33,515 bases of DNA from positions 1 to 33,515 of the forward strand of contig JBHLME010000044.1 in the NCBI GenBank assembly GCA_048938445.1. The letters are read 5' to 3'. Origin of the DNA: Promethearchaeota archaeon (GTDB lineage Archaea; Asgardarchaeota; Lokiarchaeia; Sigyniarchaeales; SOKP01). Shown piece by piece: positions 1-18,015 of the stretch (the first letter of the stretch is position 1; every line of letters begins with the position of its first letter). The notes beneath the pieces were generated by a model that did not search any database, had not been told where the DNA came from, and worked only from the letters and a program-made list of their open reading frames with translations. The translations under genes were made by a program, and so were the position numbers.

Positions 1-956
1 TTAGTATTATCTATTATTAATTTCGATTTAGATTCTTTAATCAAGGTTTCAGTCATTTTAACATTAGGATCTTTTTCTACTCCAACAGTCATAGAAAAAC
101 CTTGAATAATATCTATAAGATTCCCTTCATATTTACGAGAAGAAAATGCTTTGACAGCTCGAAGAATCCATTCACTACTCATGCGGCGTCCAGCAATTTT
201 AAAATTATTAATTCCGATATCTTCATAATGGGATAAATCCTCTGGACGTACCCAACGTGCCTTGATTACTTCAGTTGGATTTGAAAATTTGATAGCACTG
301 CAATTTAGTATGCAAGAATCTAAATAATAGCCACCTAGTTGGTGAGAATATTGAGTGGAATGTCCGACAATATTATAATGATAATATCTAAAGGGACATT
401 GATATAAGCAACCGTCAGTTAAAAGTAGAACAATATTACATTTTACTGCTTTTTTAATTTTCTTCAAGGTCTTGAAATCGCGATTAATCATCACATCCGG
501 AGTAATCTCATCTGCACCCAGCGCTTCATAAAATTTAGCTCGATTTACACTATTGACATGAGCAATAGTAGAAACACGAATTTTCAATTTAGGAAACTGT
601 TCCTTAATGAGCTGAATTAAAAAGGGAATAGTCACGATTACATTATCTGTACCAATATCACTAATCCATTGAATATAGTTTAACAATTTTTTATGATACT
701 CCGCATCATATTCCATATTACCCATACAGGGGGCATTGAGTAAATAAGAGAATTTCATATTTTTCTCGTGAACCCTTTTTATATATTCCTCAATTTGTTC
801 TTCTGTAACTTCATTTAGCAAAAATGAAGGGCGTCCATGACCAACGAACGAGAATTTTCCTACCCCATATATATCTTTGACAGGGTACTTAGCTAATTTA
901 TCTATGAGTTCAAAGTCCCAATTTGTTGCAACACATAACTGGATTTTTATCACCAT
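1..956 (-). CDS. Peptidase U32 family protein (UbiU/UbiV/TrhP/RlhA superfamily Fe-S hydroxylase-like), 3' end truncated by window edge
   Basis: Absent from the ORF track (no stop in window). Manual translation from ATG at 956: MVIKIQLCVATNWDFELIDKL...GHGRP...FSYLLNAPCMGN...VTIPFLIQLIKEQFPKLKIRVSTIAHVNS...GADEITPDVMINRDF...GCLYQCPFRYYH...SCILNC...WVRPEDLSHYEDIGINNFKIAGR; open for 318 codons. The STxAxV, IxRD, WxRPED and FKIxGR motifs plus the Cys cluster fit U32. Confidence 0.88.
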   Translation of the reverse strand, partial: MVIKIQLCVATNWDFELIDKLAKYPVKDIYGVGKFSFVGHGRPSFLLNEVTEEQIEEYIKRVHEKNMKFSYLLNAPCMGNMEYDAEYHKKLLNYIQWISDIGTDNVIVTIPFLIQLIKEQFPKLKIRVSTIAHVNSVNRAKFYEALGADEITPDVMINRDFKTLKKIKKAVKCNIVLLLTDGCLYQCPFRYYHYNIVGHSTQYSHQLGGYYLDSCILNCSAIKFSNPTEVIKARWVRPEDLSHYEDIGINNFKIAGRRMSSEWILRAVKAFSSRKYEGNLIDIIQGFSMTVGVEKDPNVKMTETLIKESKSKLIIDNT

Positions 957-986: not shown

Positions 987-1376
987 TCATTTTTGAATTG
1001 TTTTAGTATGGGCTTTTGCATTAAGCGGCAATAATGGAGCACAAGCCATTAATTTACTCATATCGCCTTCAACTACATAAGTTCCCGCCATTGTTGCTTG
1101 GATGGGATCAGATTCACCAGAATTAACTTTTTTAATAGTGTCAAAATCTGTTTTATGGATGATTTTTGGGGTATCATCTCCTGAATATTCACCCATTCCC
1201 CATCTCATCTTGTCTTTTTCAACAAATTGCCAGTAATTCATCTCAGGTCTATCAGTTATTTCATATTGAAAAACTAGTGGCGCGATGGGTTCTAATAATG
1301 GAGCTAAATCTGGTAGCTCATTATAGGCTTTCATGAAACGTGTAAGATATGCTTCCCATTCTGCTTTTGTATCCAT
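987..1376 (-). CDS. SCP2 sterol/lipid-binding domain protein (UbiT/UbiJ-like fold)
   Basis: C-terminal SGESDPIQATMAGTYVVEGD matches the SCP2 signature (G.xDP..A.M.G...vEGD). Start placed at ATG 1376 because GGAGGT lies just upstream; the track starts at 1394. Confidence 0.8.
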   Translation of the reverse strand: MDTKAEWEAYLTRFMKAYNELPDLAPLLEPIAPLVFQYEITDRPEMNYWQFVEKDKMRWGMGEYSGDDTPKIIHKTDFDTIKKVNSGESDPIQATMAGTYVVEGDMSKLMACAPLLPLNAKAHTKTIQK

Positions 1377-1626
1377 TTTATTTTTTACCTCCATTCCTTT
1401 TTGGAATTGTGAATAATTTTCAATAATTATTGGATCTTTAATATCTAATCATTTATCTTTTACTTTCTTAGCTATTAATTCTATACCATAAAATAATGAT
1501 ATAATATAACTAATATCTTCATTATTTATGAAGCGTAATAGTTCAATATTATCTTCAATCAAGAAGTTCATACTTTACGTTTACCCTATTTCAATTTTTT
1601 AGTAAAATATCATAAAAAAATATTTT

Positions 1627-2799
1627 TTAAACATAATAATCAATTCCAGCTTTACAGCCCATTAATAGAAAGTCTGCCATAGTTCCATTATAATCATTTT
1701 CAATCTTGTAATAAAGACCATTTTGCGTGAAAGTAACTCCCCAGATAAACTTTTTTTTTTCACTTTGAAGTGGAGTTTTATCAACAAACTTTTTTATGAT
1801 TGGATGCAAATGTACTGGAACCTCACTATAATGGTCGCATGTTATGCCAAAACATAGACGTTCGATTCTCTCTGAATCCCAACTAAAAGTATAATTAAGA
1901 TGCGCAGCATCAATACATCCTTCCATAACCTCTTTAGAAGCTATTTCAAATCCTAAATCTTCCACAAGTGCTACACAATTCTCGTAAGCGGCTTTTGAGG
2001 GTCTCTGAAGCATGAAATAGATATTAGTCGTATAATTAGAGAAATCAAAAGCAAAAAGACTGAATATATTCAATCCATGTTTATCGAAGTAATCCTTGTA
2101 TTTTCTCATGCTATTTGGGATATATTTCATTGAGAAGATTGGGTCAATCGTTCCTGGAACGACAAAGGGCCAGATTTTTGATAATCCAATCCTAGCGTCT
2201 ATATCAACTCCATAACCCATTATATGAAAAGTTTCTTGTACTTCTCTCATCATTTTATGAATGGGGTGTCCATTTTTTTCAATTAAACCTTCATTAATAG
2301 CAGTTGTATAAGGATCTGGATCATGAATATGCATCAATTCCACATATCTTACTGAAACATCTCTTTTTTCGACTGGCTTGGTCGTTGTTCTGATTGATAC
2401 AGGGGATCCTATATAGAATTGACTATAAAGTTTTAATGCTCTCCATATAGCCTCATCATTGCATTTTATTCCTGTAATTTCACAAAGCTTCTCTATGTCT
2501 TTAACCAGCTGATCAAGATTTGTATTGCATTTGAAATTGGAGTCTACTTTAGGTAAGTATCTATCGTAAGGAATCCCAAAAGATTCAAGATCCTCAATCA
2601 TCGTTGGTTGAAAGGCTGGGGGTGTTACTTCAAACAATGCAACAACGAGATCTACCTCTGCTACCATTTTTCCCTTTCGTTCTGCGCATTTTTTTTCGGC
2701 TGCTTCAAGAAGTGCTGGTTTTACTACGGGTCTTACCATTTCTGGAATTTTTGAAACCATTCCTTCAAATAAATCTTTAATTTCTCGTTGCCATTCCAT
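1627..2799 (-). CDS. ABBA-type aromatic prenyltransferase (PTase_Orf2; CloQ/NphB/AmbP-like) fused to an N-terminal DUF2621/PCP_red-like helical domain
   Basis: PT-barrel motifs in the expected order: IRTTTK, VRY, DPY, GHP, YGVDIDARIGLSKIW, HGL, D-x5-NIYF, TFSWDSERIERLCF, VPVHLHPIIKKF, YYKIENDYNGTM. The first 82 aa are shared with three neighbouring proteins. Confidence 0.88.
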   Translation of the reverse strand: MEWQREIKDLFEGMVSKIPEMVRPVVKPALLEAAEKKCAERKGKMVAEVDLVVALFEVTPPAFQPTMIEDLESFGIPYDRYLPKVDSNFKCNTNLDQLVKDIEKLCEITGIKCNDEAIWRALKLYSQFYIGSPVSIRTTTKPVEKRDVSVRYVELMHIHDPDPYTTAINEGLIEKNGHPIHKMMREVQETFHIMGYGVDIDARIGLSKIWPFVVPGTIDPIFSMKYIPNSMRKYKDYFDKHGLNIFSLFAFDFSNYTTNIYFMLQRPSKAAYENCVALVEDLGFEIASKEVMEGCIDAAHLNYTFSWDSERIERLCFGITCDHYSEVPVHLHPIIKKFVDKTPLQSEKKKFIWGVTFTQNGLYYKIENDYNGTMADFLLMGCKAGIDYYV

Positions 2800-2915
2800 T
2801 TTATATTAAACCTGCTAATAATCTTCATTTATTTTATTTTTTAAAATCGTTTTATTTGACATTTACTCTTTTTAATTTTTCTGTAACATTGATTAATTTA
2901 TTTATATTAAACCAT

Positions 2916-4085
2916 TTATTTTACTTCCAATCCTGCTTGTGCTCCCATCGATAATAGTTCTATCATACTCTCTGTATAATCATTTTCAACCTTGAAGAAA
3001 AGACCTTCACGAGTGAAAGTTATGCTATAGATAAATTTTTGTATTCCAGTAATGGTTGGTATATTTTCAACAAATTTCTTTATTAATGGATGAAAATTTA
3101 CTGGAACCTGCCTCTTTTCATGGCATCCAATTCCAAAGCAAATACGCTCAACTCTATCTGTATCCCAGCTGAAAGTATAGTAGATCGTCAGGGCATTGCA
3201 GCATTTATTCATAACTTCGGGCGAAGATAATTCAAAACCTAGTTCCTTGAGCAAATTTCCATATTTTTCAGGGGTAGCCTTAGATGGATCCTTAATCATG
3301 AAGTAGACATTGATGGTATTATTCAAAAAATCAAGACCAAATACACTAAAAACGTTAAGTCCATGTCTTGTGAAATAATCTTTGTGTTTCTTGATACTGC
3401 TTGGGATTGTTGACATTGAATAAACAGGTTCAAATGGACCTGGGACAATGAATGGCCAGATTTTTGATAATCCCTTCCTTACGTCTAAATCTACGCCCCA
3501 GCCTAATATTTCGAAAGTGGATATGATCTCATTGAACATCATGTGGATTGGCTCCCCATTCTTTTCGATCAAATCCTCATTAATCGCTGTCGTGTAAGGA
3601 TCTGGATTATGGGGAATCATATGCTCTAAATAACGCACCGAAATGTCTCTTTTTTCTTTTGGTTTTGTTGTTGTTCGAATAGTGACTGTCGAACCAGTAT
3701 AAAAATCCTTGTAGGCATTTAATACCTTCCAAATCGCTTTTTCATCGCAATTTACTTCGATAAGTTCCCCGATTTTTAAGATTTGTTCAACCAATTGTTT
3801 TAAATCTGTATTAAATTTATATGTACATTTTATTTTTGCGAGATATTTATCGAGATCAACACCTAAACGGATTAAATCTCCTTTCATCATATCTTGAAAA
3901 GCTGGTGGTGTTACTTCAAACATTGCAATAACGAGATCCACCTCAGCTACAGCGTTTCCATTTCGCTCCATACATTTTTTTTCAGCGGCTTCACGAACAA
4001 CAGGACCAACTATTGGTCTAACTGTTTCTGGAGTTCCAGCCACAATTTCTTCATAAAGTGTTTTCACTTTTGGTTGCCATTCCAT
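2916..4085 (-). CDS. ABBA-type aromatic prenyltransferase paralog 2 with the same N-terminal module
   Basis: Collinear paralog of 1627..2799 (IRTTTKP, DPDPYTTAINE vs NPDPYTTAINE, GLSKIWPF, YTFSWD, ERICF, KVENDY). Start reassigned to ATG 4085 (MEWQPK, GAGGT upstream); the track start at 4229 overlaps the upstream gene. Confidence 0.88.
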   Translation of the reverse strand: MEWQPKVKTLYEEIVAGTPETVRPIVGPVVREAAEKKCMERNGNAVAEVDLVIAMFEVTPPAFQDMMKGDLIRLGVDLDKYLAKIKCTYKFNTDLKQLVEQILKIGELIEVNCDEKAIWKVLNAYKDFYTGSTVTIRTTTKPKEKRDISVRYLEHMIPHNPDPYTTAINEDLIEKNGEPIHMMFNEIISTFEILGWGVDLDVRKGLSKIWPFIVPGPFEPVYSMSTIPSSIKKHKDYFTRHGLNVFSVFGLDFLNNTINVYFMIKDPSKATPEKYGNLLKELGFELSSPEVMNKCCNALTIYYTFSWDTDRVERICFGIGCHEKRQVPVNFHPLIKKFVENIPTITGIQKFIYSITFTREGLFFKVENDYTESMIELLSMGAQAGLEVK

Positions 4086-4128
4086 TTTCCTTTTTACCTC
4101 CTTTATCAATTTTCTTTTAATTTTTATT

Positions 4129-5541
4129 TCAGTTTTGATATTTAGCAAATTGAATTTGGCCCATTTCGTTAAATCCTTCTGGATTATTAAGGCCAATTCC
4201 CGGTGCGAACCATCTAGGATTGCTTTCACAATATTCTCTTACTATTTTAAATAGGTCCATTTCTTTGATCTTAGGAGAGATATAAAATTTAGGTTTGAGC
4301 AATTTTTCTTCATTCGAAATTATACCATCTCTTTCAGCAATTAATTGGAGAGGTGTATTAGGGTAGATCCTCATTCCAATAAAAATAACTACATCATTAT
4401 CTCCTTCCCACACCTCTCCCCTATAATTCTCTACAGCTTCTAAACGATTAAATGAAGCTCGTACGGTTTCAAGAGTTTCGCCCGGCCCTCCTATAATAAC
4501 ATGAATTAATTGCTCAATTTCTAACTCAATACATTTCATTGATGTAAGGATAGCATCATCTGGAGTTCTATTTTCCTTAATATTTTTCAACATTTCTTCC
4601 GATAAGGATTCAAAACCCGTATCCAGATGAGTAGCACCGCTTTCTTTCATGAGAGGCAATAAATCAACGAATTGCTTATTTGGATCGTAATTTGCCCCCC
4701 ATTTTAATTCGAATTTACGTTTTATAATTTCTTGGCATATCTCTTTTAGATATTTGTAATTTAAATTGAGAACACCATCAACAAAAAAAATATTTTTAAT
4801 TCCTAAATTATTTACAATGAAATCAAGTTCATCAGCTATTTTTTCGGGAGATCGATATCGAACGGTTGAACCTTCTATATATCTATAACTACAGTAGATG
4901 CATTTATGAGGACAACCTCGTTTTGTTTGAATATTTCCCCATATGGCACCTGTTTTATTCATACAATAGATATATTCATCATTATCCATCAACTGCCTGG
5001 CGGGGATTGGCAAATCATCTAAATTTTCCACGCGCCATGGTGTTCTTTGATGATAATTTCCCTTTCCATCTATAAAACAAATACCTTTTTCTATTTTTCT
5101 CGGATCATTATCATTCTTAAGATATTTCAAAATTTCAGCAAAAACGTATTCGCCATCACCAATAACACCAATATCGTGGTTTAAATCATATAGAATTTCT
5201 TCTGAAAAAATTGAGAAGCCAGCACCACCTAAAACTATTGGAATTTCAGGTTCTGCAATCTCTTTAATATATTGAATGATACGTTTTGTGGGTAAGTAAA
5301 AAAATAAATTTGCAGGATAAGTTGTTGAATCAATATTACGAATAGAAATACCAATTAAATGAGGATTAAAATCATCTATTGCTTTTGAAATATCTTTTTT
5401 GGAATCATTACTTAGAGTTAAATCCCTTAACATTACTTCATGTCCCTGAGAAAGAAGATAGGAAGCTAAATATGCTTCTCCTATAGGCGGGACCATGACA
5501 TGAACTAATTCTCGACTTCCAGAAAATATTAACACTCGCAT
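4129..5541 (-). CDS. B12-binding domain radical SAM enzyme (class B methyltransferase-like; resembles the lipid-biosynthesis B12/rSAM subgroup)
   Basis: PPIG, GISIRNID, LGGAGFS and GDGE in the B12 domain; TKRGCPHKCIYC; MRIYPNTPL; C-terminal LLKPKFYISP. ATG 5541 preferred over GTG 5550. Confidence 0.88.
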   Translation of the reverse strand: MRVLIFSGSRELVHVMVPPIGEAYLASYLLSQGHEVMLRDLTLSNDSKKDISKAIDDFNPHLIGISIRNIDSTTYPANLFFYLPTKRIIQYIKEIAEPEIPIVLGGAGFSIFSEEILYDLNHDIGVIGDGEYVFAEILKYLKNDNDPRKIEKGICFIDGKGNYHQRTPWRVENLDDLPIPARQLMDNDEYIYCMNKTGAIWGNIQTKRGCPHKCIYCSYRYIEGSTVRYRSPEKIADELDFIVNNLGIKNIFFVDGVLNLNYKYLKEICQEIIKRKFELKWGANYDPNKQFVDLLPLMKESGATHLDTGFESLSEEMLKNIKENRTPDDAILTSMKCIELEIEQLIHVIIGGPGETLETVRASFNRLEAVENYRGEVWEGDNDVVIFIGMRIYPNTPLQLIAERDGIISNEEKLLKPKFYISPKIKEMDLFKIVREYCESNPRWFAPGIGLNNPEGFNEMGQIQFAKYQN

Positions 5542-5586
5542 TATATTCACATCTTGATTGTTTGGAATTTAATACCCTTTTATTAT

Positions 5587-6981
5587 TCATTCAATTATTA
5601 ATTCTTCTCGAGAAGATTCTACCTCATGTTCATGATCATTTTCATGCCAGCAATACGAAAATGAACCAAAAATATCACCAGTTTCACATTCAGCATGTAC
5701 ACGGCAACCACCACCACAATAATTAAGATGATGACAAGATGCACATTTTCCAGTACGCTTCTTCCTATCACGGATATCTTTAAAAAGCTGGGAGTTTAAT
5801 ACATCTTCAAATTTATCTACTAAAGCATTACCAAGTGTTGTTTTCGTTGGATAACCACATGGATAAATCGTACCATCCACGCCGACACCCATCATTGTCC
5901 TGCAAGCCAAACATCCTACTCCCCATTCAATTGAGGCTAATTCTTTATCATCTTTTGGCCATTCCATGAAAGGCGTCATTTCATAAATTTCATAAATAGG
6001 TAAAATACCTGCTTCACCCTGCCTGATTGTTTCAATAGCATGCCTATATTTAAAATCATAAAGTTTTTTGTATTCTTCTTGACTTAAACCAATTTCATCC
6101 CAATATTCAGCTGCTCGATTTTGTTTAACCACTGCCCTAAAAAATGTTTCTGCGCCCCATTTTTCTGATAAAGCTCTAAGTTTATCTAACTCATTAATGT
6201 TTTGCTTCATTATGGTTATTGATGTACATACAAATAAACCAAATTTCAAACAATTTTTTATTGCCTTCTCAGCATATTCTAATGAATTAGAGAATCCACG
6301 AATTTCATCATTTTTCTTTGGATCAGCACTTTCAAAACTGACAAATACATGACTCAATCCATTTTCTTTGGACATTTTAGCGAAATTCTCATCAAATCTT
6401 ACTCCATTAGTGATTATAGAATGGATATACCCCCTTTCTTTACAAAATTTCATAATGTCGCTAATATCTTCACGTAAAGTAGGTTCACCTCCGAACCATA
6501 TGTAGCATCCGTGTTTTCCCTGTTTTTGCAATCCTGTTTCCAAATTTTCTATAATTTGACACCATTCTTCCGTAGAAAGCTCGGGTCGAGGAACTTGGTC
6601 ATCTGCGGCACAATGTAGGCATTTCATATTGCATCTATCAGTAAGATACATCGCAAAATGTACATTACCTGGATGGAAGGCTTTAATTATACTCTCCCAA
6701 GTAACCTTGATTCGATCCAATATCTCTTTGAGTTCAATATATCTCTCAACATCTACTCCTAATGATGTTAAATCTTCAACCATCGTTGGTTTAAATGCTT
6801 CAGGGGTTACATCAAATATCCCTGTTATTAAATCGGCTTCATTAATATAGGAACCATTACGTTCATTGCATTTTTTTTCTGCTGCCTTAATTAACATCGG
6901 TTTTACAGAAGTACGTATTGCTTCTGGAATTTTTTCTACAATATTTCCAAATAATTCTTCAGTTTCTTTTTCCCAATCCAT
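5587..6981 (-). CDS. Radical SAM/SPASM-domain enzyme with the shared N-terminal module
   Basis: CNMKCLHC, GGEP and ITNG; SPASM motif GCLAC...DGTIYPC...KCASCHHLNYCGGGCR...YCW. Confidence 0.9.
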   Translation of the reverse strand: MDWEKETEELFGNIVEKIPEAIRTSVKPMLIKAAEKKCNERNGSYINEADLITGIFDVTPEAFKPTMVEDLTSLGVDVERYIELKEILDRIKVTWESIIKAFHPGNVHFAMYLTDRCNMKCLHCAADDQVPRPELSTEEWCQIIENLETGLQKQGKHGCYIWFGGEPTLREDISDIMKFCKERGYIHSIITNGVRFDENFAKMSKENGLSHVFVSFESADPKKNDEIRGFSNSLEYAEKAIKNCLKFGLFVCTSITIMKQNINELDKLRALSEKWGAETFFRAVVKQNRAAEYWDEIGLSQEEYKKLYDFKYRHAIETIRQGEAGILPIYEIYEMTPFMEWPKDDKELASIEWGVGCLACRTMMGVGVDGTIYPCGYPTKTTLGNALVDKFEDVLNSQLFKDIRDRKKRTGKCASCHHLNYCGGGCRVHAECETGDIFGSFSYCWHENDHEHEVESSREELIIE

Positions 6982-6993
6982 AAATTCTCACTT

Positions 6994-8361
6994 TTATTTA
7001 CAATTTTCATGTATATGGTCATCTTCATGCCAACAGAAAGGAAGAGATGCTAGAAAATCTCCTGTTTCGTTTTCTGCATGACATCTACAACCACCACCAC
7101 ATAATTCAAGGTGATGACAAGACGCGCAGCGCCCCTTTATTTTTCTATCCCTAATAGCTTTGAACATTTCAGATTCCATTATTTCATTGAAATCTTGCTT
7201 CAGAACATTACCTAAGGTTATCTGGGATGGATAATCACAAGGAAAGAAATCTCCATTGACATCAATGCCAGAGACTGAACGACATGCTTGGCATCCTACA
7301 CCCCATTCTAATGCAGTTCGTTCCTCATCATTGAGAGGGCATTCCATGAAAGGTACCATATCATAAATAAGGAATTTATGAATGCCGCTAACTTTCCCTT
7401 TTCTTATTGCATCAATAATTCGACCATATTTGAAATTATAAAATTGTCGATATTGATCAAGATCTAATCCAATTTCATCCCAATTTATATCAGCAGATCG
7501 TTGCTTAATGATAGCTCTGAAATAAGGTATCACACCCATAGATTCTAATCTATCTTTTATTTCATTTAACTCATCAAAATTATCTTTCTGAACTGTTGCT
7601 GTACAAACGGTAAGATGGCCATATTTCAATGATAATTCAATAGCTTTCTCAGCTGCTTCATAAGCTTTCGGAACGCCTCTAATCTTCGCAGCTCTTTCAG
7701 GATAAATACTATCATAGCTAATAAAGACATGACTCATCTTAACATCTGCACATAATTTCGCTAGATCCTCATCAAAAAGCATACCATTTGTAGAAACAGC
7801 TTGATAATATCCTTTTTCACCACAATATCTTATTAAATCTCTAAGCTCTTTGCGAAGTGTAGGTTCCCCCCCAAACCATATATAACAACCTCTCCTACCA
7901 CGTTTTCGTAATGTCTGTTCAACATTTTCGATGATCTGAATCCATTGTTCTTTTGATAATTCTGGACGGGGTTTCAACACTGAAGCTCCACAATGTTGGC
8001 ATTTCTGGTTGCATCGATCAGTTAGATACATTGTGAAATGATACACTCCGGGGAGAAAGGCTGCACCAACATCATCCCATGAACGAGCATGAGCTTTCAT
8101 AATTTCTGATAACTTTATATATCGGTCAGTATCTATTCCTAGGTTTTTCAAATCATTGACTACGGTTGGTTTAAATGCCTCAGGTGTTATCTCAAATAAT
8201 GCGGACATCAAATCGTCTTTACTTACAAATCGAGAATTCCTAAGCCTTGCGGTTTTTTCCGCAGTTTCACGCAACATCTGTTTAACCGCATTACGAAACG
8301 TTTCAGGTACCTGATCCGTGATGTTCCCATACATTTGTTCAATTTCATTATTCCATTCCAT
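6994..8361 (-). CDS. Radical SAM/SPASM-domain enzyme paralog with the shared N-terminal module
   Basis: CNQKCQHC, GGEP and STNG; SPASM motif GCQAC...NGDFFPC...RCASCHHLELCGGGCR...FCW; collinear with 5587..6981. Confidence 0.9.
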   Translation of the reverse strand: MEWNNEIEQMYGNITDQVPETFRNAVKQMLRETAEKTARLRNSRFVSKDDLMSALFEITPEAFKPTVVNDLKNLGIDTDRYIKLSEIMKAHARSWDDVGAAFLPGVYHFTMYLTDRCNQKCQHCGASVLKPRPELSKEQWIQIIENVEQTLRKRGRRGCYIWFGGEPTLRKELRDLIRYCGEKGYYQAVSTNGMLFDEDLAKLCADVKMSHVFISYDSIYPERAAKIRGVPKAYEAAEKAIELSLKYGHLTVCTATVQKDNFDELNEIKDRLESMGVIPYFRAIIKQRSADINWDEIGLDLDQYRQFYNFKYGRIIDAIRKGKVSGIHKFLIYDMVPFMECPLNDEERTALEWGVGCQACRSVSGIDVNGDFFPCDYPSQITLGNVLKQDFNEIMESEMFKAIRDRKIKGRCASCHHLELCGGGCRCHAENETGDFLASLPFCWHEDDHIHENCK

Positions 8362-8465: not shown

Positions 8466-9203
8466 TCAATTAATTCCCTCCCATTGGTAATAATCGTAAA
8501 AATCAGTAAAAATATTAATTTCGGGATGGGGATAAGGATTTTTTGAACGAAAAATCCAAAATTTTTCAAAAAGAGCATAATAACGGGAAAATACAAGATT
8601 TTTATAGCAATAACTTAAGGTGAGCTTAGATTCTCTGTGAAAAATTCTATTTATAATGCTGATACTTCTATATCTTCTTCTTTCCAGAGTAATATAAAAA
8701 CCATCAATTCTTTCATTTTTTCTACTATTTCTTTTAATAACATCTAAACGTTTATCATCGAGATAATATCTTAATTCATCCTTTACTCCAAATATTAAAT
8801 CTAGATCTTGATACTGTGCATCGAATTTTCCTTTAGTTCCAAGAAAATATGTTCCCATATAAATAAGTAATCGATCTTCTTCATTTAAGAATGCACTTTT
8901 AACATAATGATAAAAAAGGGTATCAAGATAACAGAAGAAATTAAAAATTATGACGATATCAATCAATTGACCCATGCTAAATTGGATTATTTGATATTCT
9001 TTCGGTATAAACTCTAAGATATTAATATATGGTAAAGAAGGAAAGAAAATTGATTTGCCAGAAGTAAAATATTCCTTTAATAAAGAAGAAAAAAACGGAA
9101 TATCTCCTAAAAACATGTTAATAAATGTAATTGGGAAACAAGAGGAAATAAAAACCAATATCAGAATACATATTAAATTTTTGAGTTTTTTATCATTTTG
9201 CAC
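8466..9203 (-). CDS. Hypothetical membrane protein
   Basis: 245-aa ORF with two hydrophobic N-terminal segments and no recognised motif; GTG start. Confidence 0.55.
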   Translation of the reverse strand: MQNDKKLKNLICILILVFISSCFPITFINMFLGDIPFFSSLLKEYFTSGKSIFFPSLPYINILEFIPKEYQIIQFSMGQLIDIVIIFNFFCYLDTLFYHYVKSAFLNEEDRLLIYMGTYFLGTKGKFDAQYQDLDLIFGVKDELRYYLDDKRLDVIKRNSRKNERIDGFYITLERRRYRSISIINRIFHRESKLTLSYCYKNLVFSRYYALFEKFWIFRSKNPYPHPEINIFTDFYDYYQWEGIN

Positions 9204-9471: not shown

Positions 9472-10974
9472 TTAATTATCTTTCATTTTAGGTTTTTTCG
9501 AATCTGTGGTTAGAAGCATTGGTATTGTGCTTAAAAATAAAAGTTTATTCGCATTTTGAATAGAAGTTCCAGAAAAATGTTCCTTATCATAATTTATTAA
9601 ACTATAAAAATAAGATATTTTACTTCGTTTAAATGCTTCAGCAACTTCCAAAAATGAATTATATTTTAATTTTATCCCAAAACTCTCAGGAGATTCATGG
9701 GCAGGAGAACCAGGGAAAATATAATACGGCTCACTCATTATAGAAATTGGCTTAGAATTAGATTTTCCATATTTTAAAATACATTTAATTATAAAATTCC
9801 AATCTTTTACAATATCAATAAATTTTTGGAAAGGAAAGCCAATTGTTAACCAAATTCTTAATTTCATTCGTAATAAATTGGCATTTTTTATTAAGTCATT
9901 AATTTGACATTGAGGAAATTTAAATGTCGGATCACAAATTTTAGCTATTTTTTGATGAACTTTGGATGATAAAGTTCGAGGAGAAATACTAACTGATGAA
10001 TCTTTGTGATTGAAAGTTTCATGATAGATTTTCCACATTTCTTTAGGAAATGGTAAACGCCATATCTCTAAATCTCCTCCAATATCAAATTTTTCTTTTT
10101 GAATCAACCCAAATAATCTTTTCCAATATTTTAAATTAGCAGGATAGGTACCATGTCCGAAAAATATACTTGGAACCTTATAATTCTCGAGAATATTTCT
10201 GATATCTTCTAGTACTCTTTCTGGACTTCTGAGAATAACTTTATTGCGTCCTAATATATTTTGCTGAGCTCTCTGCCCTCCTCCACAGAACGGACAATTA
10301 AAAGGACAACCTCTTCCAACGGGTATAATACCAGAGATTCCCATAATCTTTCTACTCTGCTCAAAATAATATTTAGCATTTTTTAGTAATGATATATTTG
10401 TAAAGCTAAAATCATCTAATGTTTTTGCTGTATAGGAAATAGAATTAACTTTTATGTGTTTAGAGGAATCTCGATAAGATAAATTGGGAACCGAATCTAA
10501 AGGTTGATTTTTATTAATCTTTTGTATGTATTTTAAAAATGGAATTTCGCCCTCTCCCCTAATGACACCATCAATTGCTTTATAGTTTTTTAAAATTTCA
10601 TTATGATAATATGAAGCACTGTACCCCCCAAGAATCACTTTAGCACTGGGATTTAATTTTTTTACTAATCGAGCAACTTCAATTGCTCCATATGCATTAT
10701 GTATCCAATGTAAGTCTATTCCGCATATATTAAAATTAATATTTTTAAGATAGTCTGATATTGCCCAATTATGATTTAAATTCTGCTCTAAAGGATAATT
10801 AATAATTCTAACTCCAAAACCTTCTTTCTCAAGGACATCGCCAATAGCAAATAAACCCATTGGAATGAACATATACGAGCCCCGGGCAAATTTAGCGATT
10901 TTGCTATTAAAAGATTTTACAGTTCTAGGTGGATGAATTAAAATTACATCGTAGTTTTTCAAGATTACTGCCAA
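9472..10974 (-). CDS. B12-binding domain radical SAM protein (DLHW-motif subgroup)
   Basis: IPMG, GIDLHW, LGGYSAS, RGEGE and GRGCPFNCPFC motifs. Confidence 0.88.
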   Translation of the reverse strand: MAVILKNYDVILIHPPRTVKSFNSKIAKFARGSYMFIPMGLFAIGDVLEKEGFGVRIINYPLEQNLNHNWAISDYLKNINFNICGIDLHWIHNAYGAIEVARLVKKLNPSAKVILGGYSASYYHNEILKNYKAIDGVIRGEGEIPFLKYIQKINKNQPLDSVPNLSYRDSSKHIKVNSISYTAKTLDDFSFTNISLLKNAKYYFEQSRKIMGISGIIPVGRGCPFNCPFCGGGQRAQQNILGRNKVILRSPERVLEDIRNILENYKVPSIFFGHGTYPANLKYWKRLFGLIQKEKFDIGGDLEIWRLPFPKEMWKIYHETFNHKDSSVSISPRTLSSKVHQKIAKICDPTFKFPQCQINDLIKNANLLRMKLRIWLTIGFPFQKFIDIVKDWNFIIKCILKYGKSNSKPISIMSEPYYIFPGSPAHESPESFGIKLKYNSFLEVAEAFKRSKISYFYSLINYDKEHFSGTSIQNANKLLFLSTIPMLLTTDSKKPKMKDN

Positions 10975-11173: not shown

Positions 11174-12142
11174 ATGAATAATATGATAATTTTAGACGGA
11201 AATTTTTTCGATTTTTTGTTCATGATAGTTTTCCCTTTAGTACTACTCGGGTTACTTCTAATTATTTTTATAAGTGGACTATTTAAAAAAAAACCAAAAC
11301 AAGAACTTATGACTTTAGATGAATTTATAATGGATTGGCTTAAGGATCACGGACAAGCTCATAAATTGGAGGAACAGTTTGCTAAAATGAAAAAAGATCC
11401 TGCTGGAAAAATTTACATGCCGTTAACATATCATGGCGCAAAATTTGCCATAAGATGCGGTTTAACTCCAAATAAAGTATCTTATATTAATTTAATATTA
11501 TCATTTTTCATATTTTGGGCAGTAATAATGATAAGTAAAGGTCATACTTGTAATTTATTTTCTCAACAACCTTATTTTGGAGCTTGGTTTATTCCTCTTG
11601 CATTTTTAGCTTTATTTACAGGAATTATTGATGGAATCGATGGATCGATAGCTAGGTTATTGGATATAAAATCTAAAAGTGGTGCGTGGTTAGATAATGT
11701 GATTGACAGAATATGTGATATATTATTATTAGTTTGTTTAGTTCCCACTAGTTTTATGGTTGTTTCGATTTTAGGGTATAGGTTAGATTTTACATGGATC
11801 GTTTGGACAAATATTTTTTTAGTTTTTCTCTATGAATACATGAGAGCAAGACATGAAGGTTTAGGTCTGCATGAAGCAAAACCGTTTATTGGTGAAAGAA
11901 TAACGCGTTTTTTTCTAATATTTACATTTTTCTTGATTTACGGTATTTCGAGTTTTTTTGTATTGTTGACAAATTGGATTTATCCCTCTGCTACAAAAAT
12001 TTGGACGAATTCTCACATTGGAACAATAACATGGAATATGTTAATTTATCAAATAATCTTATTATTGATTATGGTTTTTTCATCAATTAAATTAGCCAGC
12101 TATAGTTTGAAAAATTTAAAAAGATTAGATCGTGGAGAATGA
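11174..12142 (+). CDS. CDP-alcohol phosphatidyltransferase family protein
   Basis: TPN motif plus DGIDGSIAR-x7-GAWLDNVIDRICD (canonical DxxDGxxAR...GxxLDxxxD); YMRAR and GERITR; multiple TM helices. Confidence 0.9.
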   Translation: MNNMIILDGNFFDFLFMIVFPLVLLGLLLIIFISGLFKKKPKQELMTLDEFIMDWLKDHGQAHKLEEQFAKMKKDPAGKIYMPLTYHGAKFAIRCGLTPNKVSYINLILSFFIFWAVIMISKGHTCNLFSQQPYFGAWFIPLAFLALFTGIIDGIDGSIARLLDIKSKSGAWLDNVIDRICDILLLVCLVPTSFMVVSILGYRLDFTWIVWTNIFLVFLYEYMRARHEGLGLHEAKPFIGERITRFFLIFTFFLIYGISSFFVLLTNWIYPSATKIWTNSHIGTITWNMLIYQIILLLIMVFSSIKLASYSLKNLKRLDRGE

Positions 12143-12311
12143 ATGAGGATTAAAAAATAATTAATGTAAAAAGGGGTATAACAAAATTAATTTTAAAGGA
12201 TTTTTATATTTAGTTTTACTGGTAATCTTTTTTGTTCTATTACACTTATATTTTCCACCTTATTTATCATCAGGAACAAAGACCGCAATAGATACATTTA
12301 TTGCTGACCCT

Positions 12312-13535
12312 TTGACTTATTGGTGGTTTATATTTCCCTTAATTGGTTTAATTGTATGGTTGATATTGATTATATATTATGGAAAATACTTTTTAGCTTC
12401 ATTTGGTCGTGGTTATAGAACTAAAAAGCCCTATTATCCAAAAATAAGTATAATGATTGCCTCTAAAAATGAAAGAATATTATTAGAAAGAACCTTAAAT
12501 TCGATTGTTGAATCTGATTTTCCTAAAGAAAATATCCAATTAATTATAATAACCAGTGGATCGACAGACGATACTACAGAATTTTGTTATAATTTTGCTA
12601 AGAAACATAACACAATAGATATAGAAGTTTTATCTGATGATCTTCCCAAAAAGGGAAAACCTCCTGCAATGAATTATGGTCTAAAATTCGTAAAAAATGA
12701 AATTATTGTTCTTTATGATTCTGGTTGTATTTTACAAAAAGATACATTAAAGAATTTAATATCCCGATTTCAAAAGAAAAAAATTAATGCGGTTATTGGA
12801 CCTGTTTTAGTTACAAATTGGAAGACTAATATATTGACTAGAGCGATATTTCTTGATTATTCATTTTTATCGGGAGGAGGATTATTATTTGAAACAAAAA
12901 ATAGATTAGGTAAATCAGCTTTTTCATTTGGACGAAACTTTGCAGTAAGAACGGAATATCTAAAGAAATATGGTGGATTTAACGAAGATTCAACCACAGA
13001 AGACCTTTATCTTTCTGTGCTTTTAAATATGGATGGAATAAAAATTTACTTTTCTCCTAAAGCAAAAGTTTATGAACACGTACCTAGTACATGGAAGATT
13101 TTAGCAAAACAACGTGAACGATGGCTTGCAGGATATATTTTTGATATGCCACAATTAATGGCAATGGAAGGTGAAAAAAAGAACGGAAAATCAGTAATTA
13201 TTGATAGGAATATGACAATGACATTTTTAGGAAATATTGATTCTTGGATGCCTATATTTATTGGATTAGCAATTTTATTTTTCATTATTGGAGAATTCTA
13301 CCTTCTTAGCTGGACCCTCGCCTGTTTATTCTTTCAATTTGGATTTTTGTTCAATGCTGTGCGAAAATATGGAGATAAACATTTCAGTATTTTGTTTTTG
13401 TGGCCATTATCCGGTTATATTCATCTTTATATGTTTTTACATCAGTTTAAACTTCCAAAAGAAATAAGTTGGGATAAAACTCCGATGCTTCTCGAGAAGC
13501 AAGAAGAAGAAATAATTGCTTTATCTTCTAAATAA
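12312..13535 (+). CDS. GT2 glycosyltransferase, cellulose-synthase-like membrane type
   Basis: STDDT, GKP, TED and QRERW (QxxRW) motifs, with TM helices at both ends. The true start may be upstream (see findings). Confidence 0.88.
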   Translation: MTYWWFIFPLIGLIVWLILIIYYGKYFLASFGRGYRTKKPYYPKISIMIASKNERILLERTLNSIVESDFPKENIQLIIITSGSTDDTTEFCYNFAKKHNTIDIEVLSDDLPKKGKPPAMNYGLKFVKNEIIVLYDSGCILQKDTLKNLISRFQKKKINAVIGPVLVTNWKTNILTRAIFLDYSFLSGGGLLFETKNRLGKSAFSFGRNFAVRTEYLKKYGGFNEDSTTEDLYLSVLLNMDGIKIYFSPKAKVYEHVPSTWKILAKQRERWLAGYIFDMPQLMAMEGEKKNGKSVIIDRNMTMTFLGNIDSWMPIFIGLAILFFIIGEFYLLSWTLACLFFQFGFLFNAVRKYGDKHFSILFLWPLSGYIHLYMFLHQFKLPKEISWDKTPMLLEKQEEEIIALSSK

Positions 13536-13631
13536 CTTTAAAATAAAAATTGATGAATTTTTTATTCTCAAAATTTATTAATATTTAGTATTTAAAATTA
13601 ATCAATACAGTTTTTTGTCGACGTAATTATT

Positions 13632-14936
13632 ATGGTGTTTTTAAAATTTCACGATCTTTTACCCGAAGAATTAAAAACAAAATATTTTGATTTTAAACCA
13701 TGTAATTATCCAAATGAAAAATTTTGTAAAGATTTATTAGAGCAAATAAAATTATCCTACAATAATTGTAAATATTATCAAGAAAATCTCTGTAAAAAAT
13801 TCAATTTTACGATTCCAGACTATTTAAATATCGATGATCTAGAAGCAATTCCATATATTCCGACAGAAACTTACAAAAAATCAGGAAATCGGACATTGCA
13901 ACTTTTAAAAACCACTCTTGATAATATTGCACTCTTTTCATGTTCCTCATCTACAACCGGCGATCCTTCAATAGTTCCTCGAACTTTGGAAGATTTTGAT
14001 CAATTACAGTATAATTCGATTAAAGCTTTTACTGATTTTTTTGGATGGAAAGATTTAATAGTAGGACCAAAAAAATGCGTAGTTTTTAATTTTTCACCTG
14101 ATCGATTACTAATGTCATTGATGGCAAAAAAAAATATTAAAGAATTTGAATATATAGATAAAACTCGCTATTTTACAGCATGCATGAATAAACCTTGGGA
14201 ATATTATGGGCATGAGGAATATATGGTAAAATTTAAGCATTTAAAATCAATTTGGAACGTTATTAAATCCTTTTCAATAAAAGCAGCGTTTATTTTAGAT
14301 GTAAGTAAAATGTTGAAAATGATCGAAAAAATTTTAAAGACTGGATCTTGGAAAAAAATGGAAGTAAATAAAATTTTACTTGGTGGAAGCCCACTTTTAA
14401 TGAATAATATGTTTAAAAAAAGATTATTAGAAGAAAATATATTTTATGACCTTGATGGTTTTGCTACTGTTGGATGCGGTGGTGGTGGATGGGAAGGAGT
14501 AAAAGGTGAAGCAAAATTGGATGCCGTTAATAAAGTTAAATTTATTGAATATTATGAACAAGTCTTTAATATCAAATCAAAAGATATAGCAGATATTTAT
14601 GCATTTACCGAAGGACCAACTCTTTTTGGGGGACATTGGTCTGAGAAGTACCAAGATTTTTTATTGCATTGTCCTGATACTTCCCGAATTATTGTGAGAG
14701 ATCTAAATAAATTAAAACCTATAGATAATGGTGAAGAAGGCTTATTAGAAGTAATTACACCTTATGGCGTCAACGGTACAATAAATCAAGCAGTCCTAGT
14801 TGATGATATTGTCGAGCTAATTTCAAAAAATAAGTGTTCAGAATGTGGCTATCAAGGAGCTACCTTTCGAATTCTAGGACGATTAAAAAATGCTCAAGGT
14901 AAAAGCTGTTCTTCTTTAATTAATTGGATCTACTAA
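13632..14936 (+). CDS. LuxE-like acyl-protein synthetase (ANL adenylate-forming superfamily)
   Basis: IPYIP, SSSTTGDPS P-loop, GGGGW, YAFTE, LVDD, CSECG, LGR and terminal GKSCS. Confidence 0.8.
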   Translation: MVFLKFHDLLPEELKTKYFDFKPCNYPNEKFCKDLLEQIKLSYNNCKYYQENLCKKFNFTIPDYLNIDDLEAIPYIPTETYKKSGNRTLQLLKTTLDNIALFSCSSSTTGDPSIVPRTLEDFDQLQYNSIKAFTDFFGWKDLIVGPKKCVVFNFSPDRLLMSLMAKKNIKEFEYIDKTRYFTACMNKPWEYYGHEEYMVKFKHLKSIWNVIKSFSIKAAFILDVSKMLKMIEKILKTGSWKKMEVNKILLGGSPLLMNNMFKKRLLEENIFYDLDGFATVGCGGGGWEGVKGEAKLDAVNKVKFIEYYEQVFNIKSKDIADIYAFTEGPTLFGGHWSEKYQDFLLHCPDTSRIIVRDLNKLKPIDNGEEGLLEVITPYGVNGTINQAVLVDDIVELISKNKCSECGYQGATFRILGRLKNAQGKSCSSLINWIY

Positions 14937-15006
14937 TGATTTTTTATTTTAATAAGATTAAAAATATAAAAATAACTACTAAGGTTAATTAAGGAGTATT
15001 CTTTTA

Positions 15007-16452
15007 ATGAAAATCAATCTTATTAATCCCGCACCTTCAAAAATTAAAGATGGACAGAATGAAACATTATTTTATGCTTCTTCTCCTCCGTTAGGATTAA
15101 TGTATCTTGCTACATATTTAAAAAATTCGGGTCATAAAATTTCTATTTTAGATCAAGCGGCTGTTAATTATGAGAATAGTGATGTTATTAACTGGGTTAA
15201 AAAAGGAGACCCAGATGTAGTAGGTTTTTCAATTTTATGTGCTTCTATAGAAAATGCGAAAATAATATCTAAAGCAATAAAAACCTGGAATCCTAATCTG
15301 AACACCATTTTTGGGAATTATCTTGCAACATTTTACGCAAGAAAAATCTTAGAAAATTATGATTGGGTAGATATTTGCGTGCGAGGGGATGGTGAAACAA
15401 CTTTCTCAGAGCTTACGGAAAAGATAGAATTAAACAAAAATCTTAATGAAGTTGCTGGAATAACATATAAAAGTAACGGGAAAATTATAGAGAATAAGAA
15501 TCGACAGTTAATTAAAAATCTTGATATTTTACCATTCCCCGACCGAAAATTAGTTCCAAATAACTATAAAAATCGTATTGGGGGAATTGATGTATCACCA
15601 CGAAAATTTACAACAATGGTTACTTCAAGAGGATGCCCTTTTGGATGCGATTTCTGCGCGTGCACAGCATTCTCTCAAGGGCTTTGGAGGACTCGATCAG
15701 TAAATAATATATTTGAAGAGATATGCGAATTAGCGAATCTAGGTTTTAAAGAAATCCTTTTCGTTGATGATAATTTTACATTTAATAGAAAAAGAATAGT
15801 CGAATTATGCAACAAAATAATGAAGGAAAAAATGGATATGGTATTTGTATGTGATGGAAGAGTAAATAATAGCTCCATTAATTTCCTGAGAACTATGAAA
15901 AAAGCAAATTTTGAAATCCTCATGTATGGAATAGAAAGTAGTTCTCAAAGAATATTAAATTATTACAATAAAAAAATAACACCTCAAATGAGTGAAACTG
16001 CTGTAAAAAATGCACGTAAGGCGGGTTTTAAGATGATTGTTGGGTCATTTATGATAGGTGGGCTTGATGAAACATATGCTGAGGCAATTAATACTCTTAA
16101 ATTTATTTCAAAACTCGATATTGATTTTCCTCATATAATTTTTACGCGAGCATTACCAGGAACTCAGCTTTTCAATAATTTAATCAAAAGAAAAATAATT
16201 GATGAAAATAAATATTGGGAAAGAGGAGTAGATCTTATAGATTTACCTGAAGCAAAAATGGATCGACAAGTAATTTATAAAATAATAAAAGAACAGTTTC
16301 ATTTAAATTTCTTCAGACCTAAATATTTGATTAAATCTCTTTTACGAACATTAATGAGTAGATACAGGCAAGAAATGTATTTAAATCATCTAAATTTTCA
16401 TGATTTAGATAAATTTATTAAGTTGATAAATAATCCTCCTGATTTATTTTAA
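15007..16452 (+). CDS. B12-binding radical SAM enzyme (class B; BchE/HpnP/GrsA-like superfamily)
   Basis: PPLGL, RGDGE, LPFPDR, SRGCPFGCDFC, VDDNF, GIES and PGT motifs. Confidence 0.92.
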   Translation: MKINLINPAPSKIKDGQNETLFYASSPPLGLMYLATYLKNSGHKISILDQAAVNYENSDVINWVKKGDPDVVGFSILCASIENAKIISKAIKTWNPNLNTIFGNYLATFYARKILENYDWVDICVRGDGETTFSELTEKIELNKNLNEVAGITYKSNGKIIENKNRQLIKNLDILPFPDRKLVPNNYKNRIGGIDVSPRKFTTMVTSRGCPFGCDFCACTAFSQGLWRTRSVNNIFEEICELANLGFKEILFVDDNFTFNRKRIVELCNKIMKEKMDMVFVCDGRVNNSSINFLRTMKKANFEILMYGIESSSQRILNYYNKKITPQMSETAVKNARKAGFKMIVGSFMIGGLDETYAEAINTLKFISKLDIDFPHIIFTRALPGTQLFNNLIKRKIIDENKYWERGVDLIDLPEAKMDRQVIYKIIKEQFHLNFFRPKYLIKSLLRTLMSRYRQEMYLNHLNFHDLDKFIKLINNPPDLF

Positions 16453-16474
16453 TCTAAAATTTATGGAGTGATAT

Positions 16475-17986: not shown

Positions 17987-18015
17987 TTAAAAATACAATA
18001 GGATATATCAAAAAA

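Follow-up and report, generated by a model that had tools for sequence, protein, structure and literature searches.

A four-helix module shared by unrelated enzymes of an Asgard archaeal gene cluster, a putative adaptor for a predicted prenylated aromatic lipid pathway

In a stretch of 33,515 nucleotides from a Promethearchaeota archaeon (GenBank assembly GCA_048938445.1; "the window" below, our contig C144:1-33515), four neighbouring genes encode two prenyltransferases, PT1 and PT2, and two radical SAM/SPASM enzymes, SP1 and SP2, which all begin with the same small domain, here called the module. The first 82 residues of the four proteins align over 82 columns with zero gaps, at 44-60% identity (the PT1 copy is 60, 52 and 44% identical to the other three), and 21 columns are invariant (M1 W3 P19 E20 R23 V26 A34 E35 K36 R41 D50 L51 F56 T59 P60 A62 F63 D70 L71 G75 Y81). 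Even the weakest pair, PT1 and SP2, gives a BLASTP E value of 5e-28, with 36/82 residues identical and 0 gaps, so that the sharing is far beyond chance. A preliminary description of this DNA had proposed a gapless module of about 82 residues at these four N-termini, and had written out a consensus for it; every one of its intervals holds the module and the invariant columns agree with its consensus. All four genes lie on the minus strand, and the plus-strand reading of 2554-2799 has 3 stop codons.

Downstream of the module Pfam recognises two unrelated folds, PTase_Orf2 in one pair of enzymes and Radical_SAM with SPASM in the other, so the idea that a single domain heads enzymes of unrelated folds was well founded. 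PT1 and PT2 score 164.3 and 170.1 bits against PTase_Orf2 (PF11468, cut-off 22), within an overall range of 164-177 bits. The full-length AlphaFold2 model of PT1 has a predicted local distance difference test score (pLDDT) of 91.5, with 80-92 in the module part, and a predicted template-modelling score (pTM) of 0.84; in Foldseek its barrel matches AmbP3 (5y7c) with a template-modelling (TM) score by target of 0.91 and a root-mean-square deviation (rmsd) of 2.3 Å. By profile and by model, PT1 and PT2 are ABBA aromatic prenyltransferases of the Orf2 family, and prenyl transfer to an aromatic acceptor is predicted for them. The longest open reading frame (ORF) of PT2 starts at a GTG at 4229, inside the end of the adjoining B12-binding radical SAM gene; the orthologue at L022 6945-8114 and the module alignment point to the ATG at 4085 as the true start.

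Table 1. Features of the window, and composition of the second cluster of the same genome on contig C17 (HMM, hidden Markov model; aa, amino acids; E, E value)
Feature	Position	Strand	Remarks
Module copy 1	2554..2799	-	Residues 1-82 of prenyltransferase PT1; HMM E 1.4e-44; gapless alignment
PT1 linker and ABBA barrel	1627..2553	-	PTase_Orf2 E 5.5e-48 over residues 94-378; gene 1627-2799, 390 aa
Module copy 2	3840..4085	-	Residues 1-82 of prenyltransferase PT2; HMM E 8.4e-43
PT2 gene	2916-4085	-	389 aa from ATG; PTase_Orf2 E 9.5e-50
Module copy 3	6736..6981	-	Residues 1-82 of SP1 (radical SAM/SPASM); HMM E 2.9e-44
SP1 gene	5587-6981	-	464 aa; Radical_SAM and SPASM domains
Module copy 4	8116..8361	-	Residues 1-82 of SP2 (radical SAM/SPASM); HMM E 2.6e-43
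SP2 gene	6994-8361	-	455 aa; Radical_SAM and SPASM domains
U32-family Fe-S enzyme	3..956	-	Peptidase_U32 E 4e-14; contig end cuts gene at residue 318
Stand-alone SCP2 lipid-carrier protein	987..1394	-	SCP2 E 2.8e-07; probably 129 aa
B12-binding radical SAM enzyme	4129..5550	-	B12-binding and Radical_SAM; no module match
orf245, conserved orphan protein	8466..9203	-	Immediately upstream of the two module-SPASM genes
Second B12-binding radical SAM enzyme of conserved cluster	9472..10974	-	B12-binding and Radical_SAM; no module
C17 cluster: U32-module		-	471 aa
C17 cluster: U32-module-SCP2		-	684 aa
C17 cluster: U32-like protein without module		-	383 aa
C17 cluster: SCP2-module-prenyltransferase		-	536 aa
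C17 cluster: SPASM-SCP2 without module		-	503 aa
C17 cluster: one B12-binding radical SAM and two module-SPASM enzymes		-

A profile search found nine module copies in this genome, four in the window and five on contig C17, where the minus-strand locus L010:7378-19598 holds a paralogue of the entire cluster in which the domains are joined differently (Table 1). The SCP2 domain, which stands alone in the window, is fused beside the module in the C17 cluster. This bears on the earlier statement that the B12-binding radical SAM, SCP2 and U32 proteins lack the module, which holds for the B12-binding radical SAM and SCP2 proteins of the window but fails for U32. Since the window is a whole contig, its U32 gene ends at the contig edge; the four closest U32 orthologues examined (in L013, L018, L022 and L023) all have a C-terminal module, and, to judge from them, the window enzyme's own copy is expected beyond the contig end. 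U32 and SCP2 proteins are thus no module-free partners.

With the nine genome copies as input, AlphaFold2 predicts a compact four-helix domain (pLDDT 89.7, pTM 0.77; helices at residues 5-16, 23-40, 48-58 and 61-73) whose beta content is a two-residue bridge only. Across 61 Asgard copies just six of the 82 positions (W3, P19, E35, P60, F63 and L71) are conserved at 90% or more, and these are mostly prolines and hydrophobic residues; the module is acidic, with a mean net charge of -1.4 to -5.2 by class, and the 61 copies show no conserved Cys/His pattern or other catalytic signature. The model suggests that the segment is an independently folding, non-catalytic four-helix domain. The TPxAF and PExxR patches, which had been put forward as candidate interfaces, look weak on this count, as the U32 classes have other residues in place of E20 and R23.

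The kinship that the preliminary description saw with DUF2621 and PCP_red could be placed on firm ground for DUF2621, by way of intermediate sequences. Direct matches to DUF2621 (PF11084) fall below its cut-off of 27.7 bits: SP2, SP1 and PT1 score 24.1, 20.7 and 15.6 bits, PT2 gives no hit, and copies on U32 proteins of the second cluster score 22.4 and 18.9 bits; the matches span only model positions 52-138 of 139, short of the whole model. When the nine-copy profile was searched against 1.84 billion representative proteins, 262 clusters were found at E<=1e-3. Stand-alone proteins of 90-115 residues that are matched by the module HMM (P0164, 1.6e-13; P0155, 1.1e-14; P0196, 5.9e-11; P0212, 4.7e-10) also pass the PF11084 cut-off (34.3, 29.1, 34.7 and 32.3 bits, respectively), which establishes homology of the module to DUF2621. 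Of the 73 hits of 130 residues or fewer, some of which are gene fragments, 46 match PF11084 and 15 match PCP_red (PF08369) at E<=1e-3, and in the ESM Atlas the closest clusters consist of DUF2621 proteins (score 0.95, 224/256 features in common). Judged by sequence, then, the module is a divergent member of a DUF2621-like group. Accepted DUF2621 members stand alone, whereas the window copies are fused to enzymes and are without the first ~50 model positions. We found nothing on DUF2621 function in the literature searched.

The relationship to PCP_red is looser and unproven. The four window modules have no PF08369 match even at E<=10; beyond the short relatives (best E 1.1e-08), P0132, P0265 and P0229 match at E<=1e-3, and the eight scored matches on relatives all lie below the 32.5-bit cut-off (best 28.0 bits). 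Foldseek gave no significant structural match for the module in the PDB. The most compact matches were 2kru (rmsd 3.1 Å over 61 columns, TM 0.44/0.53) and 2l09 (rmsd 3.3 Å over 58 columns), both at a non-significant E of 0.3, with TM by target of 0.52-0.53 and probabilities of 0.80-0.82; PDB sequence searches with the 9-copy and 73-protein profiles returned nothing below E 0.06, and neither 2kru nor 2l09. These two structures are PCP_red domains, 2kru being the C-terminal helical domain of the ChlB/BchB subunit of dark-operative protochlorophyllide oxidoreductase (DPOR) and 2l09 Nostoc asr4154. PCP_red is likewise small, helical and carried on an Fe-S enzyme, but its host enzymes are different and there is no tetrapyrrole context around the module. 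In BchB the PCP_red region covers the protochlorophyllide pocket; the literature passages searched, which were parts of their sources, held no statement on a lid role of this C-terminal domain of BchB/ChlB. Kinship with the histone fold was also considered and was rejected (PDB sequence E 0.15-1.3; Foldseek E of at least 0.13, with rmsd mostly 5.6-9 Å).

The names carried by its homologues place the genome among the Loki-type Asgard archaea. Of the 301 Asgard genomes sampled, 27 have the module, including 22/68 of the window's own family, with 1-10 matches per genome that are mostly clustered. We compared gene order over 14 annotated sources, namely the window, the C17 locus and twelve related loci. 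The conserved order is a B12-binding radical SAM gene, orf245, two module-SPASM genes, a B12-binding radical SAM gene and a module-prenyltransferase gene, and then a U32/SCP2 part that takes one of two forms: SCP2 with U32-module, or U32-like, U32-module-SCP2 and U32-module. U32-module-SCP2 fusions are found in L010 and in seven further loci; in L015 and L020 the module-bearing enzymes stand in another order and the B12-binding radical SAM genes are absent, and in L013 (16605-16832) a stand-alone module of 75 residues lies inside the cluster.

Retention was counted with the catalytic domains as queries (for SPASM at E<=1e-50, with coordinates compared by eye). All 24 prenyltransferase-domain matches in the 301 genomes have the module (22 complete at the N-terminus, one partial and one at the C-terminus), and 41/42 SPASM matches have a module match directly upstream, the remaining one being cut by a contig end. 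Close orthologues thus retain the module, and the set of enzymes is conserved yet patchily distributed; the preliminary description had held that orthologous clusters routinely without the module would count against a shared function, and among close orthologues that is not what we see. Mean pairwise identity is 0.60 in the module against 0.57 in the catalytic part for 65 prenyltransferases, and 0.55 against 0.61 for 51 SPASM enzymes; that is, module and catalytic domains are conserved to a similar degree. In a tree of 62 modules, which rests on 82 columns and leaves many forks unresolved, copies group by host enzyme class with a minimum of 6 label changes, compared with 31.5 when labels are shuffled (support: prenyltransferase 95/97, one SPASM type 98/97, U32 94/88, U32-SCP2 99/97). 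The fusions are therefore old and have been maintained separately in each enzyme lineage.

Such retention bears on one explanation, that the module has no specific partner and, passed on along with the genes, serves as a generic aid to folding, solubility or stability. It is true that a partner has not been found so far, that the superfamily sits on many unrelated enzymes, and that characterised ABBA prenyltransferases, like six full-length homologues described below, do without it. Yet a module that is conserved as well as the catalytic domains, is kept in five separate enzyme lineages, was gained at least twice by prenyltransferases (once per terminus) and has its nine genome copies concentrated in two clusters is scarcely what a mere appendage would look like, and we regard this explanation as hardly credible.

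A search of public proteins with the barrel only shows where prenyltransferases manage without the module. Among the 120 homologues examined, the best of 125, 106 have an N-terminal module, five have a C-terminal one (40-46% identity to PT1; the prenyltransferase of L021 is also of this kind) and nine have none. Three of these nine are probably fragments; the other six are full-length proteins of 296-316 residues that are 39-47% identical to PT1. Prenyltransferases have therefore gained the module at least twice, once per terminus. We annotated 7/28 metagenome loci matched by module-free proteins, and in four of them (L104, L107, L111 and L129) a module-free prenyltransferase lies beside module-SPASM genes. 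L111:84-15746 and L129:178-16738 both hold three U32-module proteins, a HEAT-repeat protein of ~290 residues, three module-SPASM enzymes, the module-free prenyltransferase and a NUDIX protein; L111 adds a P450, and L129 adds a B12-binding radical SAM enzyme, a HemN-like radical SAM enzyme and a 3-deoxy-D-arabino-heptulosonate 7-phosphate (DAHP) synthase. In L107:9956-13802 (GC content 0.70) and L104:3-2310 (GC content 0.64) the module-free prenyltransferase is directly followed by a module-SPASM gene, and L107 also has a P450; with contigs of such high GC content, the module-SPASM pairing reaches well past the low-GC Asgard genomes.

These variant clusters set a limit to retention: close orthologues keep the module, while in distant clusters a prenyltransferase does not always need it, so that not every enzyme of the pathway does. 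SCP2 was not seen in the available stretches of the four loci; it is not always nearby and so cannot be a universal partner. The HEAT-repeat protein of L111 and L129 is a candidate hub. Module-bearing and module-free prenyltransferases form a natural pair for comparison.

Beyond these clusters, the 150 best representative hits of the profile search were classed by architecture. Next to the 73 short proteins (130 residues or fewer) there are 24 of the form U32-module, 15 module-prenyltransferase, nine module-radical SAM/SPASM, three U32-module-SCP2, two prenyltransferase-module, two with SCP2 and the module only, one radical SAM-module (P0265), 12 of 131-320 residues with other partners, and nine long proteins of more than 800 residues. 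The nine long hits (851-1602 residues, 5-12 weak repeats) were considered as multi-module scaffolds and rejected as false positives; of the seven scanned, six are TPR_10/TPR_12 proteins and the seventh is repetitive with scattered weak matches (P0235 and P0259 were outside the scan). Further fusions are LuxC-module-radical SAM/SPASM (P0200), HpaB-module, module-PNPOx-like and module-class I methyltransferase; SCP2 adjoins the module as U32-module-SCP2, SCP2-module-prenyltransferase, SCP2-module and module-SCP2; and tandem copies occur in P0227 and in P0185, where two modules precede a [2Fe-2S] thioredoxin-like ferredoxin. For the stand-alone relatives we collected 79 loci labelled Omnitrophota or Planctomycetales, and the 42 of at least 12.2 kb that were analysed have no conserved neighbour: the commonest family is found in 10/42 loci, with ORFs overlapping the matched gene excluded.

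The ferredoxin fusion of P0185 raises the question of redox docking, by which the module would recruit a ferredoxin-type electron carrier to the radical SAM/SPASM and U32 enzymes, its presence elsewhere being secondary. The most constant carriers of the module are indeed Fe-S enzymes, and each of L111 and L129 has it on its three U32 and its three SPASM proteins but not on its prenyltransferase; in addition, the PCP_red namesake belongs to an Fe-S enzyme, subunit B of DPOR (2kru). Nevertheless the module is equally kept on proteins that are not redox enzymes (111/120 prenyltransferase homologues, SCP2, a class I methyltransferase), the B12-binding radical SAM enzymes of the cluster also need electrons and yet have none, and the compact Asgard clusters, in which all genes were assigned to nine query types, contain no ferredoxin or flavodoxin gene. 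We consider redox docking improbable.

The same variants and fusions bear on another explanation, that the module is a substrate-handling domain which packs on its own catalytic domain and binds a feature common to the intermediates, such as a prenyl tail or a flat aromatic ring, in a role that would be like that of the PCP_red region over the BchB pocket. Linkers of ~10-15 residues, the full-length PT1 model with its module pLDDT of 80-92 and pTM of 0.84, and strong class-specific positions, which suggest co-adaptation with each host enzyme, are all consistent with this, as is the distant kinship with PCP_red. Enzymes whose substrates are aromatic or hydrophobic small molecules (HpaB, methyltransferase, PNPOx-like, LuxC-radical SAM) are found as fusion partners in relatives, and in the variant clusters it is the prenyltransferase, the putative installer of the prenyl group, that alone is without the module when SPASM and U32 enzymes keep it. 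Against this, a domain of 80 residues would have to suit four unrelated folds from either terminus, stand-alone and tandem copies exist, and the module is acidic. In our judgement substrate handling is unlikely, but it deserves to be weighed seriously.

The other genes of the cluster suggest what pathway the module-bearing enzymes might serve. The B12-binding radical SAM enzyme at 4129..5550 has as its best NCBIfam match TIGR04072, "lipid biosynthesis B12-binding/radical SAM protein" (280 bits, short of the 360-bit cut-off), and its second counterpart adjoins the cluster in L012, L013, L014 (where it is cut at the locus edge), L016, L017, L019, L022 and L023. The SCP2 protein has 107 homologues, with 63-87% identity among those of comparable length, an unusually high conservation; one of them, P0364, is 64% identical and comes from a metagenome-assembled genome labelled as bacterial (Candidatus Deferrimicrobium), which could reflect gene transfer or a binning error. 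Four cysteines (C77, C183, C187 and C219 in window numbering) are invariant in 27/27 cluster U32 proteins, and 18-26 of the 27 have a further cysteine group, perhaps another metal site, past the point at which the window protein is truncated (for example at L010:7378-8793, minus strand). Neither the SCP2 protein nor the three U32 proteins compared matched an NCBIfam model at E<=1e-5.

orf245 is present in 12/14 annotated sources (13 copies) and matches no family in Pfam, NCBIfam or the ESM Atlas. Its N-terminal ~105 residues are hydrophobic and conserved, and its C-terminal half is variable, basic and aromatic-rich; judged by eye, the N-terminus probably forms two membrane helices, and orf245 could be a membrane anchor or a hub for the enzymes. 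Beside the cluster, a divergent plus-strand block (11174-19455) encodes a CDP-alcohol phosphatidyltransferase, a family-2 glycosyltransferase, a LuxE-type acyl-protein synthetase and three tandem B12-binding radical SAM enzymes, and by its gene content looks like a lipid-modification island; the genes near the cluster thus include glycosyltransferases, LuxE and three more B12-binding radical SAM enzymes. A prenylated aromatic lipid is the most economical reading of this context, and most likely the cluster makes such a lipid without oxygen.

Some of the same genes might be read as a pathway for ribosomally synthesised and post-translationally modified peptides (RiPPs), in which the cluster would modify a peptide or protein and the module would bind its leader like a RiPP recognition element (RRE), as the preliminary description had suggested. 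RiPP pathways do include SPASM enzymes, B12-binding radical SAM methyltransferases and ABBA-fold prenyltransferases. RREs are winged helices with a three-stranded sheet, fused or free, that often stand at the N-terminus of radical SAM/SPASM enzymes, which is also where the module stands; peptide maturases are among the weaker NCBIfam hits to the SPASM enzymes, and in orf245 a conserved N-terminal part is followed by an aromatic-rich C-terminal part that varies. The logic of the RRE and of the module is the same, a small non-catalytic domain recurring on unrelated pathway enzymes, but the fold is different: the module has four helices, and no RRE or PqqD structure is found in Foldseek ranks 1-50. 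Within 1.5 kb of the cluster no ORF of 18-110 residues is conserved in more than 2/13 loci, although a precursor encoded elsewhere is possible. The enzymes bear fused SCP2 lipid-carrier domains, the prenyltransferase is a member of the small-molecule Orf2 family with indole, phenazine and naphthalene prenyltransferases as its nearest barrel structures in Foldseek, and the neighbours are lipid genes, with DAHP synthase in a variant cluster. A leader-peptide role is disfavoured by all this, and we hold it to be very improbable.

We tentatively favour, while stopping short of calling it probable, the reading that the module is a putative pathway tag, a protein-protein adaptor for an oxygen-independent prenylated aromatic lipid pathway. 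In Loki-type Asgard archaea the module was joined long ago, in independent events, to soluble enzymes of several classes from one conserved cluster: at the N-terminus of the ABBA prenyltransferase, at the N-terminus of the two radical SAM/SPASM enzymes and at the C-terminus of the U32 enzymes. It might then keep these unrelated enzymes in one place, bound to one another or to a common hub, so that an intermediate insoluble in water, with SCP2 as its carrier in clusters that have one, could pass between active sites. What speaks for an adaptor is that a single genome has the one domain on four unrelated catalytic folds and beside SCP2; that it stands at the N-terminus of prenyltransferases and SPASM enzymes but at the C-terminus of U32 enzymes and of one radical SAM enzyme (P0265), which would not be expected of a lid fitted to one active site; and that there are tandem and free copies, SCP2-adjacent fusions and strong retention. 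We infer, rather than observe, the product of the pathway, the binding of proteins by the module and the identity of its partner.

Several findings weigh against the adaptor. The short linkers (~10-15 residues) mean that the module is held close to its own enzyme and not on a long tether. Conservation is mostly class-specific, with 6/82 universal positions, and appears to leave little universal polar surface for one partner. A module-free prenyltransferase stands beside module-SPASM enzymes in L104, L107, L111 and L129, and in the last two beside U32-module proteins as well, and six full-length homologues among the 120 have no module; the lack of sightings of SCP2 in those four loci also removes it as a universal partner. 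Fusions to LuxC, 2Fe-2S ferredoxin, HpaB, PNPOx-like and methyltransferase proteins suggest that the role of the superfamily is not tied to this pathway, and stand-alone Omnitrophota copies have no conserved neighbour (best 10/42). A complex prediction with SCP2 and the modules of PT1 and SP1, each with its alignment, scored 0.00 twice, which speaks neither for nor against binding.

A more specific form of the adaptor is possible, if somewhat unlikely: that the module is an assembly or hand-over element, a small-molecule counterpart of the RRE, that gathers the soluble enzymes for a novel quinone-like prenylated electron carrier made without oxygen in Asgard archaea. In either form a domain of unknown function would receive its first role, and the hand-over element would be the first function for DUF2621 itself. 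If the module gathers enzymes or hands over a greasy intermediate, small-molecule pathways would also have a new mode of organisation. Little is known of the specialised lipids and membrane-associated electron carriers of Asgard archaea, which are the nearest prokaryotic kin of eukaryotes known so far. We found no description of the module or of the cluster in the literature searched, most of which was judged from less than the full text, and the enzyme set itself (soluble aromatic prenyltransferase, radical SAM/SPASM, B12-binding radical SAM, U32 and SCP2, all oxygen-independent) is likewise one for which we found no published description. The module HMM is a good search handle, as it picks out the whole pathway in a genome.

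Two known systems help to place the cluster. The ABBA prenyltransferases AmbP3/FamD1, AmbP1, EpzP, NphB/Orf2 and CloQ share the barrel of PT1 (E 6e-28 to 5e-17, TM by target 0.78-0.91, identity 18-28%), but their solved chains of 280-316 residues, with 288-316 in the best PDB matches, align over ~290 columns and none has the 82-residue N-terminal module; the earlier view that characterised members are stand-alone barrels is therefore upheld. Ubiquinone synthesis, the other system, uses a membrane UbiA-type prenyltransferase. Its SCP2 proteins UbiJ, of the UbiJ/UbiK Ubi complex, and UbiT are proposed to hold the hydrophobic intermediates of ubiquinone and to organise a complex of several Ubi enzymes, and UbiT acts with the U32 pair UbiU-UbiV in an oxygen-independent hydroxylation (PMC6747719). 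The Asgard cluster differs from this machinery in its soluble ABBA prenyltransferase, in its added radical SAM enzymes, in U32 and SCP2 proteins that match no curated NCBIfam model at E<=1e-5 and in a U32 cysteine spacing other than the commonest CX6CX15CX3/4C pattern (PMC6747719), and a shared helical module is not mentioned in the Ubi literature consulted. The likeness lies in the pairing itself: as in the Ubi machinery, an SCP2 protein is encoded together with a U32 Fe-S enzyme (window 987-1394 and 3-956), for what would likewise be chemistry without oxygen on a prenylated aromatic lipid, and the U32 enzymes carry four conserved cysteines.

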